A DNA stretch of 64,000 nucleotides, taken from contig JANNPX010000029.1 of the NCBI GenBank assembly GCA_031400455.1, positions 464 through 64,463 on the forward strand, given 5' to 3'. This stretch comes from Chloroflexota bacterium. GTDB lineage: Bacteria > Chloroflexota > Dehalococcoidia > DSTF01 > JACRBR01. Position 1 is the first letter of the stretch. Every line of letters starts with the position of its first letter. The notes beneath the pieces are model-generated. The model ran no database searches and was not told the origin of the DNA. It saw nothing but the letters and a program-made list of their open reading frames with translations. The translations under genes and the position numbers were made by a program. This document shows, one piece after another, positions 2,635-63,450 of the stretch.

Positions 2635-2732
2635 AGGTTGGAAGTTGGAGGTCTGAGCCTCTGACGGGAATCGGACGGGGCCATCAGTCAGTCGGCGCGA
2701 GCGCCTATCAACGAGACAGGAACAACAACGCA

Positions 2733-3731
2733 ATGCCACAGATGTACTACGACAAGGACGCGGATCTTTCGCTGCTCAAGGGGAAGACGATCGGCGTGAT
2801 CGGGTTCGGCAGCCAGGGGCATGCCCACGCGCTGAACCTCAAGGACAGCGGCTGCAACGTCATCGTCGGCCTCTACCCCGGCTCGAAGTCGTGGGCGAAG
2901 GTCGAAGAGGCGGGGCTGCGCGTCGGCAATGTGCGCGAGGTCGCCGAAGAGGCGGACATCATCATGATCCTTGCGCCCGACCAGGTCGCGAAGGACGTGT
3001 ACTACAGCCATATCGCCGACGGCTTGAAGCCGGGCAACATGGTGATGTGGGCGCACGGGTTCAACGTGCACTTCGACCAGGTGCAGACGCCGGACGATAT
3101 CGACGTGACGATGGTCGCGCCGAAGGGGCCGGGGCACCTCGTACGCCGCGTGTACGCCGAGGGCGGCGGCGTGCCGGCGCTCTTCGCCGTACACCAGAAC
3201 GCTACGGAGTCGGCGCGGCAGATCGCGCTGGCATACGCGAAGGGCATCGGCGCGACGCGCGCCGGCGTGCTGGAGACGACGTTCAAAGAAGAGACCGAGA
3301 CGGACCTCTTCGGCGAGCAGGCCGTTCTCTGCGGCGGTACGACGGCGCTCGTAAAGGCGGCGTTCGAGACGCTGTGCGAGGCGGGGTACCAGCCGGAACT
3401 GGCGTACTTCGAGTGCATGCACGAGCTGAAGCTGATCGTCGACCTGATGTACGAGGGCGGCATGGAGTACATGCGCTACTCGATCAGCGACACGGCCGAG
3501 TACGGCGATTACTCTCGCGGGCCGGTAGTGATCGATGCGCACGTCAAAGAGAACATGAAGCGCGTGCTGGGCCAGATCCAGGACGGGACCTTCGCGAAGG
3601 AATGGATCCTCGAGAACCAGGCTGGGCGCCCGAGCTTCAACGCGCTGCGGCGGATCAACGCCTCGCACCAGATCGAAGAAGTGGGCGCGGAGTTGCGCGG
3701 CATGATGCAGTGGTTGAAGAAGAGCCGCTGA
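2733..3731 (+). CDS. ilvC: Ketol-acid reductoisomerase
   Basis: [40 protein letters not shown]... is the classic KARI N-terminus. The ATG at 2733 is in frame with the long ORF 2133..3731. Confidence 0.9.
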
Positions 3732-3748
3732 CATAACGGATTGACGTA

Positions 3749-3814
3749 ATGATGAACGAGTTCACGATGACTACGATGCTCGGCCTCACACTTCAACAGC
3801 CCTCGTCCGCCTGA
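3749..3814 (+). CDS. Candidate short uORF / leader peptide MMNEFTMTTMLGLTLQQPSSA between ilvC and leuA
   Basis: ATGATG begins 18 nt after the ilvC stop. The 21 codons include MLGLTL. A TTGACG -35-like hexamer sits at 3741-3746. Confidence 0.2.
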   Translation: MMNEFTMTTMLGLTLQQPSSA

Positions 3815-3858
3815 GCGGATCGGAGGGCACGGAGTTGGGCGCCGCGCGCCGCGCCGAA

Positions 3859-3874
3859 TGTTTCACGTGAAACA
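3859..3874. promoter_or_regulatory. Perfect 16-bp palindrome TGTTTCACGTGAAACA immediately upstream of the leuA SD/start
   Basis: Read directly. Followed by the GGAGG SD at 3882-3886 and the leuA ATG at 3895. Likely an operator for a dimeric regulator. Confidence 0.45.
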
Positions 3875-3894
3875 ATGCAACGGAGGACATCGTC

Positions 3895-5442
3895 ATGGAC
3901 AAGGTCATCATTTTCGATACGACACTGCGCGACGGCGAGCAGTCGCCGGGCGTCGCGCTGACGGCAGAAGACAAGATGCAGATCGCGCGCCAGCTCGAGC
4001 GGCTGGGCGTGGACATCATCGAGGCGGGCTTCCCGCGCACGTCGCCGGGCGACTTCGAAGCGGTGCAGGCGATCGCGCGCGAGATCAAGGGCGCGCAGAT
4101 CGCAGGGCTCGCGCACGCAAACCCCGAGGCCGTCGATGCGTGCTGGGATGCGGTGAAGGGCGGTGTTCAGCCGCGCATCCACGTCTTTCTGTCGACGAGC
4201 GACATCCACATCATGCACCAGCTGGCGAAAGACAAGGAGACCGTGCTCGAGATGGCGCGGACGATGGTGGCACGCGCCGCGGGCTACTGCAGCGACGTCG
4301 AATTTAGCCCGATGGACGCGACACGTAGCGACCGCAAGTTCGTCTACTGGATGCTGGAGCAGTGCATCGAAGCAGGCGCGACGACGGTGAACATTCCGGA
4401 CACGGTGGGCTACGCCATCCCGGAGGAGTTCGCGGGGTTTATCAAGGACATCTACGAGAACGTGCCGAACATCCACAAGGCTCGCATCTCCGTGCACTGC
4501 CACAACGACCTGGGTCTGGCGGTAGCCAACTCGCTGGCGGCAGTCTCGGTAGGCGCGCGGCAGATCGAGACGTGCATCAACGGCATCGGCGAGCGGGCGG
4601 GGAATGCGGCGCTCGAAGAAGTCGTGATGGCGATCAAGACGCGGCGCGACTTTATGAACGTCGAGACGAACATCAAGACGCAGGAGCTCTACCGGACGAG
4701 CCGCATGGTCGCGGATCTCACGGGCATGAGCATGCAGTGGAACAAGGCAATCGTCGGCGCGAACGCGTTCCGCCACCAGTCCGGCATTCACCAGGACGGC
4801 GTGCTGAAGATGCGCGAGACGTACGAGATCATGGACGCGAAGGAGATCGGCTGGCCGTCCGGCGGCGCGGAGATCGTGCTGGGCAAGGTATCCGGGCGCC
4901 ACGGGTTCAAGTCGCGGCTGGAAGAGCTGGGGTACGACCTCACCGAGGAAGAGCTGTCGCGCGCCTTCATGGCGTTCAAGGAACTGGCGGACAAGAAGGC
5001 GGAGATCGACGACCGCGACCTCGAGGCGATCGTCGCCGACAAGCTGCGTACCCAGACCGAGATCTACCACCTCGACTTCGTGCAGGTGTCGTGCGGCGAC
5101 CACGCCACGCCGACGGCGACGGTACGCCTGATCGCGCCTGACGGGACGGTACGGGCTGACGCCGCGCTCGGTACGGGGCCGGTCGACGCGGTGTATCGCG
5201 CGATCAACCGCATCGTCGATGTCGAGAACGAGCTGACGGAGTTCCACGTCAAGAGCGTCACCGAAGGCATCGACGCGCAGGGTGAAGTGACGATTCGCAT
5301 CGAGGGCGGCGGACGCAGCTATCTGGGCCGCGGTGCGGACACGGACGTGATCGTGGCTTCGGCCAAGGCGTACATGAACGCGCTCAACCGCATGCTGGCG
5401 TTGGACCGGCGGCAGAATTCCGAAATGGCGACGAAGCCGTAG
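3895..5442 (+). CDS. leuA: 2-isopropylmalate synthase
   Basis: [27 protein letters not shown]... with the HxH metal site ([16 protein letters not shown]) and the C-terminal LeuA regulatory domain. Confidence 0.92.
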
Positions 5443-5533
5443 CGACCAAGGGCCACGGCCTGAGGTAAAGGGCGTTGCTCGAAGCCTTGACAGAGACTTA
5501 GTGAACTTGGTAACCTCCGATTTGGGAGGTGCC

Positions 5534-5947
5534 ATGGCCACACGACGAAAGAAAGTCACATATGCAGTTGGCGGAGAGGCGGCCACCGGGGCTCTGCAAG
5601 ACGCGGCCATAGCCTGGCGGGTGGATGCGGAGGAAGACGCTGATGCCGGACGCGGGGCTACGCGGCTCAGCGGAAAGAATCAAATTACGCTGCCGGTGGC
5701 GATGCTACGAACGCTGGGGTGGCGAGCCGGAGACGAGGTGGACCTTATGATAGACGGGGAAGAGATACGGCTGCGGCGGCGGCTGCAAGGCAAGCCGCTC
5801 CTGGACAGGCTGGAAGGCGCCCTCAGTCATGTGCCTGAGTGGCAGACCAAAGAGGGCATACATACCTGGGTGCGCCAGGAGCGCGGCAGTTGGGATCGTG
5901 AGTGGGATTCAGAACCGAAGCCTTCGAGGAGCGGGTCGGCGGACTGA
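5534..5947 (+). CDS. vapB: AbrB/MazE/SpoVT-type antitoxin (VapB-like)
   Basis: The ITLPVAMLRTLGWRAGDEVDLMIDGEEIRLRR swapped-hairpin motif. GGGAGG SD before the ATG at 5534. Directly precedes a PIN-domain gene. Confidence 0.65.
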   Translation: MATRRKKVTYAVGGEAATGALQDAAIAWRVDAEEDADAGRGATRLSGKNQITLPVAMLRTLGWRAGDEVDLMIDGEEIRLRRRLQGKPLLDRLEGALSHVPEWQTKEGIHTWVRQERGSWDREWDSEPKPSRSGSAD

Positions 5948-6447
5948 GGCACATCAGCCTTGATTCGTGCGCGTGCATCTACCTCCTCACTCGGACGGAG
6001 CCGTTCACGGCACCGATACGGAGCTTGTTCGAGCGGGCGGATGCCCGCAGGCTCGCGATCTCGCTGTCGCGTTTGGTGCAGATGGAGTTGTTGGTGCATC
6101 CAATGCGCAGCCGCGATCCGCGAGAGCGCGAGATCATCGTCGATCTCACTGAGCGTGCGGGCGGCGTGCAGACGACCGAGCTGACGCGGACCGTGCTGTT
6201 CCTTGCGGCGGAGATTCGTGCGCACACCCGGCTCAAGACACCCGATGCGATCGTCGTGGCTTCGGCCGCGGCGAACGGTTGCGAAGCGATCATCGGAAAC
6301 GACAAGCGATTTCGGGACCTCGATTCGCTGGCGGGCACGCGGTTGTTGGCGAGTTCCCGGCCCGTAACGTTGCCCGAATACGTGCACCTCGATGACTACG
6401 ATGAAGAACTGAGACGACCAGCACTGACCAGGCGGGGACCGAAATGA
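5902..6447 (+). CDS. vapC: PIN-domain toxin (VapC-like ribonuclease)
   Basis: ...[12 protein letters not shown]... and ...[23 protein letters not shown]... carry conserved PIN acidic residues. The stop TGA overlaps the leuC ATG (ATGA). The annotated GTG start overlaps the vapB 3' end by 46 nt, so the true start may be further downstream. Confidence 0.65.
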
Positions 6448-9210: not shown

Positions 9211-10335
9211 TCACGCTGAGGAGTCCCAGGACTTCAGGGTGGCGGTTACTTCTGTATCTTCGCCGTCCCGGTGGATGGTGATGATCACCTTGTCGCCGAC
9301 GGCTTTGGTGTCGATGTAGTCGGCGAGATCGTCGAAGGTCTTCGTCGTGTTGCCGTCGAGGGCGACGATGACGTCGCCGGTGCCGTCGGTAGCGCCGCGG
9401 ATGCCGGCCTGGCCCGCGCCGCTGCCGCTATCGACGGACGCGACGGCGACGCCGTGCTCGATGCCGAGCGTCCTGAGTTCCGCGGGCGTCAGCGTCTTGC
9501 CGGAGATGCCGAGGCGGGCGTGGGTGATCGTCTCGCCGCCGGTGAGCTGCGTGAGGTAGCGCTTCGGCGTGTTGATCGGCACGGCGTACCCGACGCCGGC
9601 GAACGAGTCGGCGCCGCTTGGATTCTCGATGGCGGTGTTGATGCCGATGACTTCGCCCTGCATGTTGATCAGCGCGCCGCCGGAGTTGCCGGGGTTGATG
9701 GCGGCGTCGGCCTGCAGCAAGCCGCGCAGTGGCCGTCCGTTGGCGCTCGACGTGAGCGTGCGGTCGAGGCCGCTGATGACGCCGGTCGTGAAGGTGCCTT
9801 CCAGGCCGAACGGGTTGCCGATGGCGGCGATGACGGAACCGACCTTCACGAGGCTGGAGTCGCCGAGCGTGGCGGGTTGGAGCAGGCTCGCGTCCGCGTC
9901 GGTCTTGACGACGGCGGTATCGTCACCGGGATCCTTGCCGATGACATCGGCGCTGGCGGTGCTGCCGTCCGAGAAGGTGATGGTGACGGTGTCGAAGCCG
10001 TTGACGACGTGGTAGTTCGTCAGGATGTGGCCTTCCTTGTCGAGCACGATGCCGGAGCCGAGGCCGCCGCCCTGACCGCGGACGGTAGAGCCGGCGGCGC
10101 TGCCGGTCGTGATGAGCACGATGGAGGGGCGAACCTTGTCGTAGAGCGCAGTAAAGTCGTCGTTGGACGTTAGCGGCGCGCCCGGCGATCCGCTGGTGTT
10201 CACCTGGCCGGAGGTGGTGGCCGGCGCGACGGTTGCGCTGTTCGTGCTGCCGCCGTCGTCGCGGGCCCAGACGACGCCGCCGACGATGGCGGCGCCGGCG
10301 AGTACGCCGAGCAGTCCTGTCGTGAATGATTTCAT
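9211..10335 (-). CDS. htrA: HtrA/DegP-family trypsin-like serine protease with PDZ domain, secreted
   Basis: Signal/TM N-terminus, catalytic triad contexts HILTNYHV, DTAVVK and GNSGGAL, and a C-terminal PDZ domain. Confidence 0.85.
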   Translation of the reverse strand: MKSFTTGLLGVLAGAAIVGGVVWARDDGGSTNSATVAPATTSGQVNTSGSPGAPLTSNDDFTALYDKVRPSIVLITTGSAAGSTVRGQGGGLGSGIVLDKEGHILTNYHVVNGFDTVTITFSDGSTASADVIGKDPGDDTAVVKTDADASLLQPATLGDSSLVKVGSVIAAIGNPFGLEGTFTTGVISGLDRTLTSSANGRPLRGLLQADAAINPGNSGGALINMQGEVIGINTAIENPSGADSFAGVGYAVPINTPKRYLTQLTGGETITHARLGISGKTLTPAELRTLGIEHGVAVASVDSGSGAGQAGIRGATDGTGDVIVALDGNTTKTFDDLADYIDTKAVGDKVIITIHRDGEDTEVTATLKSWDSSA

Positions 10336-23541: not shown

Positions 23542-25224
<1,683 letters not shown>

Positions 25225-30016: not shown

Positions 30017-30619
30017 TCACGAATGTTCCCCCGGCCCAAGCTCGCGCCGCAGCTTCTCCCGCCCGCGCGCGATGCGAGACTTGACGGTGCCGACCGACGT
30101 CCGCATCGTCGCGGCGATCTCCTCGTACGCGAAGCCTTGCATGTCGCACATCACGACGGCCAGGCGCTGATCCGCCGGCAATCGCAGCAGGGCACGCTGT
30201 ACGGTGTCGTGCAGCTCGCTCCGAAGCGCCTCCGTTTCCGGGCCGGCAGCGGCGTCCGCAACGTCGATCGGGTCGTCGCTGCCAGGGGCCGGCGCGTCCA
30301 GCGATACGGCGGGCCGGCGGCCGCGGCGGCGCAGTTCGTCGATGCTGGCGTTGGACGCGATTCGCATCAGCCACGGGCGAAACGCGCCGCCCTTGAAGGT
30401 GCGAATGTTGCGGTACGCGGACAGAAATGCGTCCTGCGCCGCATCTTCGGCGGATGCCGGACTGCCGAGCATACGGAGACACAGGTTGTAGACCGCACGC
30501 TGGTGGAGATCTACGAGCCGGTTGAAGGCGTCGAGATCACCTTCCCGGGCAAGGCGAAGCGCGTCCGATTCGCCATCCGGATCGCTGGAGGTGGGCCCCG
30601 GAGCAGGATTTCCTATCAA
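30017..30619 (-). CDS. ECF (sigma-70 family group 4) sigma factor
   Basis: Region 2 (...AQDAFLSAYRNIRTF...) and region 4 (...EIAATMRTSVGTVKSRIARGREKLR). Confidence 0.85.
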   Translation of the reverse strand: MIGNPAPGPTSSDPDGESDALRLAREGDLDAFNRLVDLHQRAVYNLCLRMLGSPASAEDAAQDAFLSAYRNIRTFKGGAFRPWLMRIASNASIDELRRRGRRPAVSLDAPAPGSDDPIDVADAAAGPETEALRSELHDTVQRALLRLPADQRLAVVMCDMQGFAYEEIAATMRTSVGTVKSRIARGREKLRRELGPGEHS

Positions 30620-49056: not shown

Positions 49057-49101
49057 ATGTGTGAACAACAAGACAGCACGCCGAGATCTCGGCGTGCTGT
49101 C
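49057..49101 (-). terminator. Intrinsic terminator of the ECF sigma/anti-sigma operon
   Basis: 30-bp perfect palindrome GACAGCACGCCGAGATCTCGGCGTGCTGTC (49072-49101), followed on the minus strand by UUGUUGUUC. Confidence 0.5.
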
Positions 49102-49155: not shown

Positions 49156-50214
49156 CTAGTTGTGGTCTTCGGTCGGCTCGGGCTTTTGGGTAGGCTCGGG
49201 CTTCTCGGTGGGTTCTGGCGCTTCCGTTGGCTCAAGCGAATGTGATTCGGTCGACTGCGCGGCCGGCTCGGCATCGTCGCCGGGTGATGGCGTCTTCGTG
49301 CTGTCTTCGTGAGCTCCGCCGTCGTCAGTGGTGGCGGATGGCGATGGCCCGTCGTGATCAGGGCCGTCATCGTCGCTGTTGCCGTCGTCGGACTGAGGCG
49401 TGGCGCCGTCATTGCCGTCGTCCCCCGATTCGTCCGGTTCAGGCGTGCGCGCATTCTCGCCGTCGTGGCCGCGATCGTCGGTGCTCGTCGGGCGCGTGCG
49501 ATCCTCGGTTCCGGGTGTTAGTTCGGGCACGAGGTTTGGATCGAGAGTGGCGGGAGTCGGTGCGACGGCCACGATGCGCGCGGCGCGCAGCGTCCCGCCC
49601 ACGCCACGTGACGCGCGCACCCTGGCGGTCTGGCCGAGCGCGAGATCGGCGACGCCTGCGCGTACCTCGCCGATGCGGATCTCCGTTGTGGTGTCTATGA
49701 CGACGACTTCGTCCGCGCTGGATGTGCGAAGTGTGAGGCTGTCGGCCTCGAGTGCGACTATCGTGCCGCGGATCTCGACAACGTTGTCGGATGAAATCGC
49801 GAGGACGTGGAGGAAGCCCGGTACGGGGACGGGGCTGCGGTCGCCAGCAGCAGATGCGAAGCCGATGCCGCCGAAGAGCAGGACGGCGAGGCCGGCGGCG
49901 GCAGCCTGTAACCGCAGGTGACGGGCGCCGAGCGCGGTCCAGAACCCGGCGAGCATCGACGCGCGCTGCGGCGTCGGAGCGTCGAGCGCGGCGAACATCG
50001 CCTGCGCTGCATTCGCCCGCGACTGCGGCGACGGGGCTGTGCCCGGAAGTGCGAGGACTGGCTGGAGCGCCGAGAGCGGCGCGCGCATGGCGTCCGCGTG
50101 TTGCGGGTACGCGCGGAGGACGCTGTCGAGGGACTCGCCACGAGCGATGCGAGTAGCGGCGGCGTCGACGGCGTCATCCAAGGAGGAGTCGCGAGGGCGC
50201 GGTGAGTCAGCCAT
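49156..50214 (-). CDS. Anti-sigma-factor-like membrane protein with an acidic repetitive C-terminus (PEPTEKPEPTQKPEPTE)
   Basis: Overlaps the ECF sigma stop by 8 nt. One TM (LAVLLFGGIGFASAA), an extracytoplasmic domain, then a D/E/P/T-rich tail. Confidence 0.55.
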   Translation of the reverse strand: MADSPRPRDSSLDDAVDAAATRIARGESLDSVLRAYPQHADAMRAPLSALQPVLALPGTAPSPQSRANAAQAMFAALDAPTPQRASMLAGFWTALGARHLRLQAAAAGLAVLLFGGIGFASAAGDRSPVPVPGFLHVLAISSDNVVEIRGTIVALEADSLTLRTSSADEVVVIDTTTEIRIGEVRAGVADLALGQTARVRASRGVGGTLRAARIVAVAPTPATLDPNLVPELTPGTEDRTRPTSTDDRGHDGENARTPEPDESGDDGNDGATPQSDDGNSDDDGPDHDGPSPSATTDDGGAHEDSTKTPSPGDDAEPAAQSTESHSLEPTEAPEPTEKPEPTQKPEPTEDHN

Positions 50215-50770
50215 CGATGACCCTCCGCAGTGACTGCAGCGCCCGCGTCTGTGTGACTTTCACGGCTCCCTCACTCTTATCCATAACGGCGGCGGTTTCA
50301 GCGACGTTAAGCCCGTGCACGAATCGGAGCAGGATGACGTCGCGGTATTCGTCCTTGAGTTGGCCGAGGGCGTGAGAGACGTCGCGCATGTCATCGCCGG
50401 GTGCGATCGCATCGCGCGCGCTCAGGGTCTGCGCGACGCGCTCATCCGTGAGCGAGTGGGCGGGACGGCTGGCCCGGCGTTTCATATGATCGGCGATTTC
50501 GTTACGCGCGATGCGGAAGAGCCATGCGCTCACAGGCAGTCCTCGATACCGAAACGAGTCGATCCCTTTGACTGCTTCCGTGAAGACCGTCGAGGCGAGA
50601 TCATCGGCGTCGGCACGGTCACCGATCCGAAGAAGTGCGAAGTGAAAGATCCGCTCGTGTTGCTCATCGAACAACTGCTGCCAGGCTGTTTGGTCACGCG
50701 CGGCCAAAGCAGTGGCCAGGTCCTCCTCGTTCTCGTACGGACGAGCGGCCGAGATGGCGGGATCCCCCAT
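50207..50770 (-). CDS. ECF sigma factor
   Basis: ...IFHFALLRIGDRADADDLASTVFTEAVKGIDSF... (region 2), and ...LNVAETAAVMDKSEGAVKVTQTRALQSLRR (region 4). Confidence 0.85.
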   Translation of the reverse strand: MGDPAISAARPYENEEDLATALAARDQTAWQQLFDEQHERIFHFALLRIGDRADADDLASTVFTEAVKGIDSFRYRGLPVSAWLFRIARNEIADHMKRRASRPAHSLTDERVAQTLSARDAIAPGDDMRDVSHALGQLKDEYRDVILLRFVHGLNVAETAAVMDKSEGAVKVTQTRALQSLRRVIDG

Positions 50771-52696: not shown

Positions 52697-53533
52697 CTAG
52701 CTCATGGGCGTGCCGCCGGTGACGTTCAGTGTCTGCCCGGTAATCCACGCGGCATCGTTTGACGCGAAGAACGCCACGGCCCCGGCGATATCCGCCGGCG
52801 TGCCCTGACGCCCCAGCGCGATCGTCTGCACGACCGCCTTCTTCAGGGCGCCGGCATCGGCGTGGAAGCGCGCTGCCATGTGGTCGAACGTGCCGTCCAT
52901 CATGTCCGTATCGACGGAACCCGGTGCGATGCAGTTCACCGTGATCTGATGCGGCGCCGCTTCGAGTGCGAGCATCTGGGTGAGGCCGACGACGCCCCAT
53001 TTCGTTGCGCAATAGGCGCCATACTGCGGGTACGCCGTTCGCCCCGCCGCTGACGAGATGTTGATGATTCGGCCACCGCGTCCGGCTTCGACCATCTTGC
53101 GCATCGCGCGGCTGGTAAGCAGAAACACGCCGTTGAGGTTCACGTCGACCACCTCGTACCATTCGCGGTCGTCGATCTCCCAGAGATTCTTCTCGCCGCA
53201 GTAGGCAAGCCCGGCGTTGTTCACGACGATGTCGATGCGGCCGAACTTCGCCATCGTTTCGGCGACGACGCGATCGACATCCGCGGCGTTCGTCAGGTCG
53301 GCATCGATGCCGATCGCGGCGCCGCTGGCGGCCTCGATCTCGGTGGCGACCGATCCGGCGCCGCGCCAGCCGATCGCTTTCTCGTCGTCCGGGTACTGTT
53401 CTGGTGCGCGCGGCGACCCAAGCGCGACGACGCGAGCCCCTTGAGCGGCAAGTGCCAGCGAGATACCGCGGCCGATTCCGCGATAGCGTGCTGCGCCGCT
53501 GACGATCGCGACCTTGCCTTGGAGTGACGACAT
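52697..53533 (-). CDS. Short-chain dehydrogenase/reductase (SDR)
   Basis: MSSLQGKVAIVSGAARYRGIGRGISL (TGxxxGxG-like), ...NNAG..., and the catalytic YxxxK (YCATK). AAAGGAG SD before the ATG at 53533. Confidence 0.8.
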   Translation of the reverse strand: MSSLQGKVAIVSGAARYRGIGRGISLALAAQGARVVALGSPRAPEQYPDDEKAIGWRGAGSVATEIEAASGAAIGIDADLTNAADVDRVVAETMAKFGRIDIVVNNAGLAYCGEKNLWEIDDREWYEVVDVNLNGVFLLTSRAMRKMVEAGRGGRIINISSAAGRTAYPQYGAYCATKWGVVGLTQMLALEAAPHQITVNCIAPGSVDTDMMDGTFDHMAARFHADAGALKKAVVQTIALGRQGTPADIAGAVAFFASNDAAWITGQTLNVTGGTPMS

Positions 53534-56789: not shown

Positions 56790-56879
56790 ACGGGCGAGTA
56801 TATCGAGGCGTATGGCGGGGCTGATAGCGCATGAGGGGCTCCGCGGAGCCCCTCATGTCAATATCGGTGCGTGCTGGTG

Positions 56880-63376: not shown

Positions 63377-63450
<74 letters not shown>

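Follow-up and report, generated by a model that had tools for sequence, protein, structure and literature searches.

A candidate leucine leader-peptide element and a parS-consensus palindrome in the ilvC-leuA spacer of a Chloroflexota bacterium

The ilvC-leuA spacer and its surroundings

The window, by which we mean the whole 64,000-nucleotide stretch of DNA analysed here (GC content, 65.6%), carries the genes ilvB (332-2062), ilvN (2059-2634), and ilvC (about 2700-3731, with the stop codon TGA at 3729-3731), all identified by Pfam, followed on the plus strand by leuA (3895-5442), which codes for 2-isopropylmalate synthase and contains the Pfam domains HMGL-like, HCS_D2, and LeuA_dimer. The identities of leuC and leuD were also confirmed with Pfam. 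Between ilvC and the leuA start codon (ATG at 3895) lies a spacer of 163 nt (3732-3894). An initial annotation of this DNA had listed in the spacer a -35-like hexamer, TTGACG, a small ORF starting with ATGATG, a palindrome, and a Shine-Dalgarno (SD) sequence, and all four are indeed there. TTGACG occupies positions 3741-3746 on the plus strand, 3 nt upstream of the start of the small upstream ORF (uORF), and the leuA SD sequence, GGAGG (3882-3886, plus strand), lies 8 nt before the ATG and is invariant among the closest relatives.

The upstream regions of 160 leuA loci, 80 of them from species-representative genomes and 80 from metagenomes, were then compared. The LeuA protein of the window showed 83 to 94% identity to proteins of uncultured Chloroflexota/Dehalococcoidia, none closer being found in the collections searched. 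In the closest relatives (loci L002, L003, L004, and L005), the spacer is about 80 nt longer than that of the window, and the additional segment contains a near-perfect 9-bp hairpin, GGACAGGTC-TTCC-GACCTGTCC, just past the ilvC stop codon (about positions 430-460 of L002 and the equivalent positions of L003 to L005, alignment columns 44-72). This hairpin segment is absent from the window, where the uORF begins 17 nt past the ilvC stop codon.

Several other genes of the window were recorded along the way. A toxin-antitoxin-like pair, consisting of a protein with a MazE/AbrB-type antitoxin domain and a PIN-domain protein, lies at 5501-6447, between leuA and leuC; at the equivalent place in locus L081 (11651-12693) there is a ClpX-zinc-finger protein together with a PIN protein. 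A tRNA gene (63380-63450) is listed along with ilvD and two ECF-type sigma factor genes (23542-25224, 30017-30619, and 50207-50770), all on the minus strand; ilvD is thus on the opposite strand and 20 kb away.

A scan of positions 3400-4100 found no sigma-70-like promoter, and TTGACG has no -10 partner. Because the hexamer is so close to the uORF start, a promoter located there would initiate transcription within the uORF. TTGACG is probably not a promoter element, and the promoter signal that the initial annotation had read into it is left unsupported. The same scan revealed no terminator-like site on the plus strand and no U-tract after any hairpin; the sole terminator-like site, at the ilvC stop codon, belonged to the minus strand. 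The leuA leader was not found to have an intrinsic terminator, with its stem and U-tract, that competes with an antiterminator.

The leader ORF and its RNA structure

The uORF (3749-3814, plus strand; ATGATG...TGA, 21 codons) encodes the peptide MMNEFTMTTMLGLTLQQPSSA. Its candidate regulatory codons are CUC GGC CUC ACA CUU (L G L T L) at 3779-3793 on the plus strand, the final three of which make up a conserved L-x-L. In at least 52 distinct Chloroflexota/Dehalococcoidia sequences, a same-frame ORF upstream of leuA ends with the motif ...L-x-L-[RQ]-x-P-S-[ST]-A, and the motif recurs in front of leuA regardless of whether ilvC precedes it. An AUG upstream of L-x-L, in frame and before any stop codon, was present for the Leu frame in 46 of the 52 sequences, whereas the two other frames had one in just 2 of 52 each. 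Judged from the sequences, this frame specificity is strong evidence that the uORF frame is read. The Leu codons CUC and CUU are kept (CUC-NNN-CUU) around a middle codon that may be ACA, AAU, GCG, GUC, AGG, GGC, or AAC. The N-terminal part of the leader peptide varies freely between species in sequence and length, and the position of the stop codon ranges, depending on the species, from just before the hairpin P1 described below to about 106 nt downstream of the P1 start. CUU accounts for 5.5% of the Leu codons in the genes of the window and is thus a rare codon retained in the leader. An upstream ORF with Leu codons conserved across species, as expected of a leader-peptide attenuator, therefore appears to be in place. 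The uORF with its LGLTL segment, to which the initial annotation had drawn attention, turned out to be the conserved core of the leader region, and the proposal that the spacer regulates leuA in cis, specifically and apart from ilvBNC, is supported. A second small ORF starting from UUG at 3835 was dropped, since L081 has no start codon at the equivalent position.

The start of the uORF had also been likened to that of the ilvB uORF, and this likeness holds: the ilvB leader ORF (76-222), encoding MMNKQIASPEGTPVSASSQLARRDRDVVRLLSGVSGEQNTLALLGLLL, likewise opens with ATGATGAAC. Leu takes six of the last eight codons of the ilvB leader, and its final CUC CUC CUU is a complement of the SD sequence of ilvB, AGGAG, at 319-323. 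A tandem AUGAUG opens 10 of the 52 leader ORFs. In the window, AUGAUGA (3749-3757) is complementary to UCAUCAU in leuA codons 5 to 7 (V-I-I, 3907-3914), and the minimum-free-energy fold pairs the two, with the whole leader enclosed; this pairing could be due to chance, because Ile-Ile is conserved in LeuA.

In the minimum-free-energy fold of the window, the strand overlapping the Leu codons (3781-3794, plus strand) forms a helix, P0, with the strand GGAGUUGGGCGCCG at 3831-3844 (plus strand), which in turn shares nucleotides with the 5' side of P2. Between the two P0 strands lies the P1 hairpin, GCCCUCGUCCGC-CUGA-GCGGAUCGGAGGGC (3799-3828, plus strand), whose 5' arm is built from the codons past L-x-L (CCC UCG ...) and whose loop holds the uORF stop codon UGA (3812-3814). 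The folding energy of P0 plus P1 (3781-3844) was -35.3 kcal/mol (z = -2.85). The 3' partner in P0 varies by species yet stays complementary: pairs of strands from the same species were more stable than cross-species pairs (permutation p = 0.011), and the compensatory pairs CUUCGCC:GGCGAA, CUUCCG:CGGAAG, and GCAGUUGCUC:GAGCAACUGC could be seen by eye. The conservation of CUC...CUU could be due in part to the role of this segment as a P0 strand.

The P1 hairpin folded in all 46 of the 46 distinct sequences, with energies from -14.6 to -28 kcal/mol. Its outer 6 bp are near-invariant, with a single compensatory change from C-G to U-A, and MAFFT combined with RNAalifold recovered just this invariant outer stem, since bulges shift the register. 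In place of that procedure, covariation in P1 was tested without an alignment, by comparing native hairpins with chimeric (cross-species) ones. The inner stem was found to covary, with an energy of -8.3 kcal/mol for the native hairpins versus -5.7 kcal/mol for the chimeric ones, and none of 10,000 permutations was as stable. In the fetched loci, the P1 motif occurred a single time per locus, invariably in front of leuA, and in the window the copy described here is the only one at a leader. The Leu codons thus overlap a strand of a conserved and covarying P0/P1 structure, as they do in an attenuator.

The P2 region (3830-3856, plus strand) is a GC-rich hairpin region whose sequence differs between species. 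By inspection, relatives have at this position a GC-rich stem-loop of differing sequence, in most species without a U-tract; in the window, P2 was no better than shuffled sequence (z = 0.02). P2 was also considered as an intrinsic terminator and was ruled out for want of a U-tract. A comparison with Rfam, covering the whole window at the gathering threshold and positions 3650-3950 at E <= 10, found no T-box, Leu leader, or riboswitch, both searches returning only noise.

The uORF and P0/P1 probably constitute a leucine leader-peptide attenuator-like element that tunes leuA to the leucine supply. We infer a leucine-responsive, ribosome-mediated control of leuA, with translation of the uORF, stalling, and a structural switch as its components. 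When charged tRNA-Leu is scarce, a ribosome would stall on the Leu codons and prevent P0 and the base of P1 from closing, so that the leader downstream would refold and the expression of leuA (plus leuCD, if co-transcribed) would rise independently of ilvBNC. When leucine is ample, the ribosome would reach the stop codon, P0/P1 would re-form, and expression would be low. The controlled step could be translation initiation or transcript elongation (the latter, for example, via Rho). A control point for leuA inside the gene cluster makes biological sense, because ilvBNC also serve the synthesis of valine and isoleucine.

Translational attenuation resembling that of the actinobacterial LEU element is indicated by the related clades, because in these the strand with the Leu codons pairs with the leuA SD region. 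In a second clade, UUGCUCAACCU, the strand with the Leu codons, exactly complements AGGUUGAGCAA at the leuA SD; in several species of the first clade (L010, L011, L012, L014, and L025), the Leu strand pairs beside or over the SD; and among Dehalococcoidales-type relatives, it is the 5' portion of the leader that base-pairs with this SD. In the window, the pairing between the Leu strand and the SD is weak, just CCUC:GAGG being possible. When a ribosome footprint at the Leu codons was modelled in 48 sequences, the predicted accessibility of the translation start region increased modestly from 0.377 to 0.436 (p = 0.0016), while a control block placed upstream of the Leu codons in the same model had no effect on accessibility. 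For the window itself, however, the modelled stall freed neither the SD (0.47 to 0.46) nor the start region (0.40 to 0.26). The stall model thus supports SD unmasking on average across the family and not for the window.

Some further pairings and a related leader deserve mention here. The first codons of the L081 leader ORF (AUG GAA CUC CGC UCG; about 9830-9850) hold a perfect 9-nt complement of CGAGCGGAG, located by the leader stop codon (9935-9947), so that in L081 the segment after P1 has a second possible partner besides the Leu-codon strand. In eight Dehalococcoidales-type loci (L043, L057, L059, L061, L075, L077, L078, and L080), a sister leader, ...G-R-x-K-L-[IV]-L-T-x-P-S-P, is found upstream of leuA, with CCCCUCUCC/GGAGAGGGG as its P1. 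In L043, L057, and L059, the ORF of the sister leader overlaps leuA, ending 8 nt beyond the AUG of that gene, which hints at translational coupling.

The LEU element of actinobacterial leuA (Seliverstov et al. 2005, PMC1262725) has a uORF with a run of Leu codons that pairs with the leuA SD; in the same paper, mutation data from Streptomyces are said not to fit classical attenuation, and the mechanism is treated as unsettled. The Chloroflexota leader shares with the LEU element the Leu-codon uORF before leuA, a compact structure with the Leu strand in a stem, the lack of a canonical terminator, and, in the related clades, the pairing of the Leu-codon strand with the leuA SD. It differs from that element in belonging to another phylum, in having no run of Leu codons but two or three scattered ones, and, in the window, in the pairing of the Leu strand with a segment beside P1 instead of the SD; the likeness is one of design. 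With the classical attenuators (leuL and trpL of Escherichia coli), the leader has in common a short ORF with codons for the end-product amino acid within a structured RNA strand, as well as the use, in the window, of a rare Leu codon. Unlike them, the leader of the window has no intrinsic terminator or U-tract and no evident 2:3 antiterminator pairing, and it lies inside the operon, in the ilvC-leuA spacer, instead of at the operon start. In Firmicutes and some Deltaproteobacteria, ilv-leu or leuA genes have Leu-specific T-box leaders (PMC2494555), which also exert leucine-specific control of leuA in a 5' leader. The mechanism proposed here differs in involving a translated ORF rather than tRNA binding, and the T-box covariance model gave no match in the Rfam searches described above.

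Two other explanations of the conserved leader were weighed against ribosome-mediated control. The uORF-P0/P1 region could be a structured RNA binding a protein or a small ligand in a riboswitch-like manner, as was at one time suggested for the LEU element, the ORF being incidental or serving only to open the structure. That the GCCCUC/GAGGGC of P1 is near-invariant beyond the needs of pairing, that the window has neither a terminator nor a clear sequestering helix, and that the authors of the LEU-element report preferred a protein factor (PMC1262725) would all suit such an RNA, but the AUG signal is strongly frame-specific (46/52 versus 2/52), the Leu codons are kept and the one between them is not, there are no conserved unpaired nucleotides outside the leader codons, and nothing in Rfam matched, so that we regard this explanation as unlikely. 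It is far less probable still, in our estimation, that the hairpins are the 3' end or a stabilising or processing structure of the ilvBNC transcript and that the spacer has no leucine-specific role: the spacer does directly follow ilvC, and the stable P0/P1 (-35 kcal/mol) could protect a 3' end, but the leader also precedes leuA where the upstream gene is not ilvC, and it is found once per locus, in a fixed distance class from the leuA start.

The palindrome next to the leuA Shine-Dalgarno sequence

The second feature of the spacer is the palindrome TGTTTCACGTGAAACA at 3859-3874, which matches the ParB/Spo0J consensus of parS, a partition site universal to bacterial chromosomes, at 16 of 16 positions. 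This very sequence is the parS of Hyphomonas and also the idealised consensus, while the parS sequences reported for Bacillus subtilis and Corynebacterium glutamicum and for Mycobacterium smegmatis are TGTTNCACGTGAAACA and GTTTCACGTGAAAC, respectively (PMC7022226; bioRxiv 10.1101/724823). Seventeen ParB proteins from diverse clades all preferred the parS consensus sequence, and parS sites are nearly always close to oriC (bioRxiv 10.1101/724823); ParB binding usually has little effect on adjacent genes (PMC7022226). In the full-text literature, the palindrome core TTCACGTGAA led mostly to ParB/parS papers among the matches listed. By an estimate from base composition (GC, 0.656; the sequence itself is AT-rich), the number of exact parS matches expected by chance is about 2e-6 per 64 kb. 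A perfect 16-bp palindrome is in itself nothing unusual in the window, which has four; the other three, CGCCGAGATCTCGGCG, TCGGCATCGATGCCGA, and GGGCTCCGCGGAGCCC (49079-49094, 53298-53313, and 56836-56851), are all GC-rich.

No second copy of the palindrome was found in the window at up to 3 mismatches, and no full parS at up to 1 mismatch elsewhere in 1.73 Mb of related DNA beyond the leuA leaders; the arm pattern GTTTCANNTGAAAC was likewise confined to leuA leaders in the fetched loci. The site thus yielded none of the additional copies from which the initial annotation had hoped to define a regulon. Its conservation upstream of orthologous leuA genes, the lack of which the initial annotation had named as counting against an operator, was likewise seen in very few cases, so that the operator idea fails by that standard. 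The palindrome is present at the orthologous place in one other species, L081 (of which L087 is an identical copy), as CGTTTCACGTGAAACA, with 15 of 16 parS positions. L002 and L004 keep both arms with AC instead of CG in the centre (in L002, GTTTCAACTGAAAC), the palindrome has degenerated in L003, and it has been lost from L001 and L005. More than 45 other leaders that still carry the uORF and P1 have no palindrome, all the more distant leaders being among those without the site. The leuA DNA of L081 is 86.9% identical to that of the window and the adjacent P2 differs, yet parS is kept, so that in L081/L087 its conservation exceeds the neutral expectation. In a neighbour-joining tree of the seven-species group, the window and L081 fell in different sub-branches, which suggests an ancestral parS that decayed repeatedly.

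The palindrome is very probably the binding site of a dimeric DNA-binding protein, as the initial annotation had held, and this part of its proposal stands; the repressor or activator dedicated to leuA, which formed the other part, does not, given the exact parS consensus. Because of that identity, the binding protein would be ParB rather than a leuA-dedicated regulator. By its sequence, the palindrome is a site of an already known kind, parS, and the best reading of it is a lineage-specific ParB loading site within the leuA 5' leader, ParB binding being predicted from the consensus. ParB dimers would nucleate on the DNA at 3859-3874 and load as sliding clamps, and the loaded ParB would help to organise and segregate the chromosome. 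The placement of parS within the leuA leader would then be an accident of the lineage and not a regulatory device of leuA.

Compared with the chromosomal parS/ParB systems (Spo0J; B. subtilis, Caulobacter crescentus, Hyphomonas, and Corynebacterium), the site is alike in its full consensus match and in being a single palindromic site on a chromosome segment with housekeeping genes. It differs in that no cluster of sites was seen in the window and in lying within the transcribed leader of an amino acid operon, 8 nt from the SD; in B. subtilis, too, parS sites are often within genes. A Pfam search of 49 ORF translations from the window and of 10 ORFs in the 10 kb upstream in L081 found no ParB, ParA, or DnaA domains. 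A tblastn search of the window and the fetched loci with Spo0J gave no match, and the GC skew showed no sign change within the 64-kb window and so gave no indication of an origin there.

Three other accounts of the palindrome were considered alongside that of a ParB loading site without a role in leuA control. According to the initial annotation, it would be the operator of a dimeric transcription factor acting on leuA apart from ilvBNC. The perfect inverted symmetry of the site, its position 8 nt ahead of the SD, and the retention of its arms in four species agree with this, but such an operator would be a conserved and/or repeated site, and the palindrome is missing from the more than 45 orthologous leaders with uORF and P1 and has no further copy in the 64 kb or in the fetched related DNA. 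Moreover, the sequence is identical to the parS consensus, and the site lies downstream of the leader and not at a promoter, none having been found. We consider an operator highly improbable. Boxes for CodY, Cra/LacI-family proteins, TnrA, and Rex were ruled out by the order or spacing of their half-sites.

The palindrome could also act only as a hairpin, P3, of the leader RNA, its parS identity being coincidental or secondary. Its place is indeed within the transcribed leader, with P2 on one side and the SD on the other; L081 can lengthen the stem by 4 bp; and in L002 and L004 the two central (loop) bases are changed but neither 6-nt arm is, two random substitutions being expected to fall both in the central pair of the 14-nt core in an estimated 1% or so of cases. 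The AC centre of L002 and L004 may be tolerable for an RNA hairpin loop and weaker for ParB binding, and these arms, kept around a changed centre, are the sole observation that leaves room for an added role at the RNA level. Against a role as a hairpin only, the 6-bp structure is weak (-4.7 kcal/mol, z = -1.4), neither compensatory nor G-U changes occur in its arms, most leaders lack it, and the match to parS is exact with the very low chance expectation given above; we take this account to be very unlikely. Somewhat less improbable, and still doubtful in our view, is a dual role, in which the same 16 nt would serve as a ParB loading site on the DNA and as hairpin P3 of the leucine attenuator on the leuA mRNA, the leader being separately an undescribed Leu sensor across the class Dehalococcoidia whose SD-mimicking P1 would place it outside classical attenuation. 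Such a dual role would explain why L002 and L004 kept the arms after the loss of the central CG. If it holds, two central substitutions would be enough to turn a leader hairpin into a centromere site or the reverse, and ParB occupancy and ilv-leu transcription might affect each other.

Two features of one spacer

We consider it likely that the spacer holds two independent features, a leucine leader-peptide attenuator-like element and a parS site. For the palindrome, the lesson is a practical one: a perfect palindrome with a CACGTG core by a bacterial gene start should be compared with parS before it is named an operator. As a parS site, it would in turn be a marker for the partition and SMC-loading region in uncultured genomes.

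The leader would make the spacer a leucine-specific control point within the ilvBNC-leuA gene cluster. The leader family, an L-x-L peptide together with a GCCCUC...GAGGGC hairpin, lies upstream of leuA in many uncultured Dehalococcoidia-type Chloroflexota, bacteria that are essentially without experimental genetics. It appears to be undescribed, as it has no Rfam match and no paper on it was found, and it still falls within a well-known kind of system. As a leader family without a terminator, like the LEU element, it could help to settle how such leaders work.
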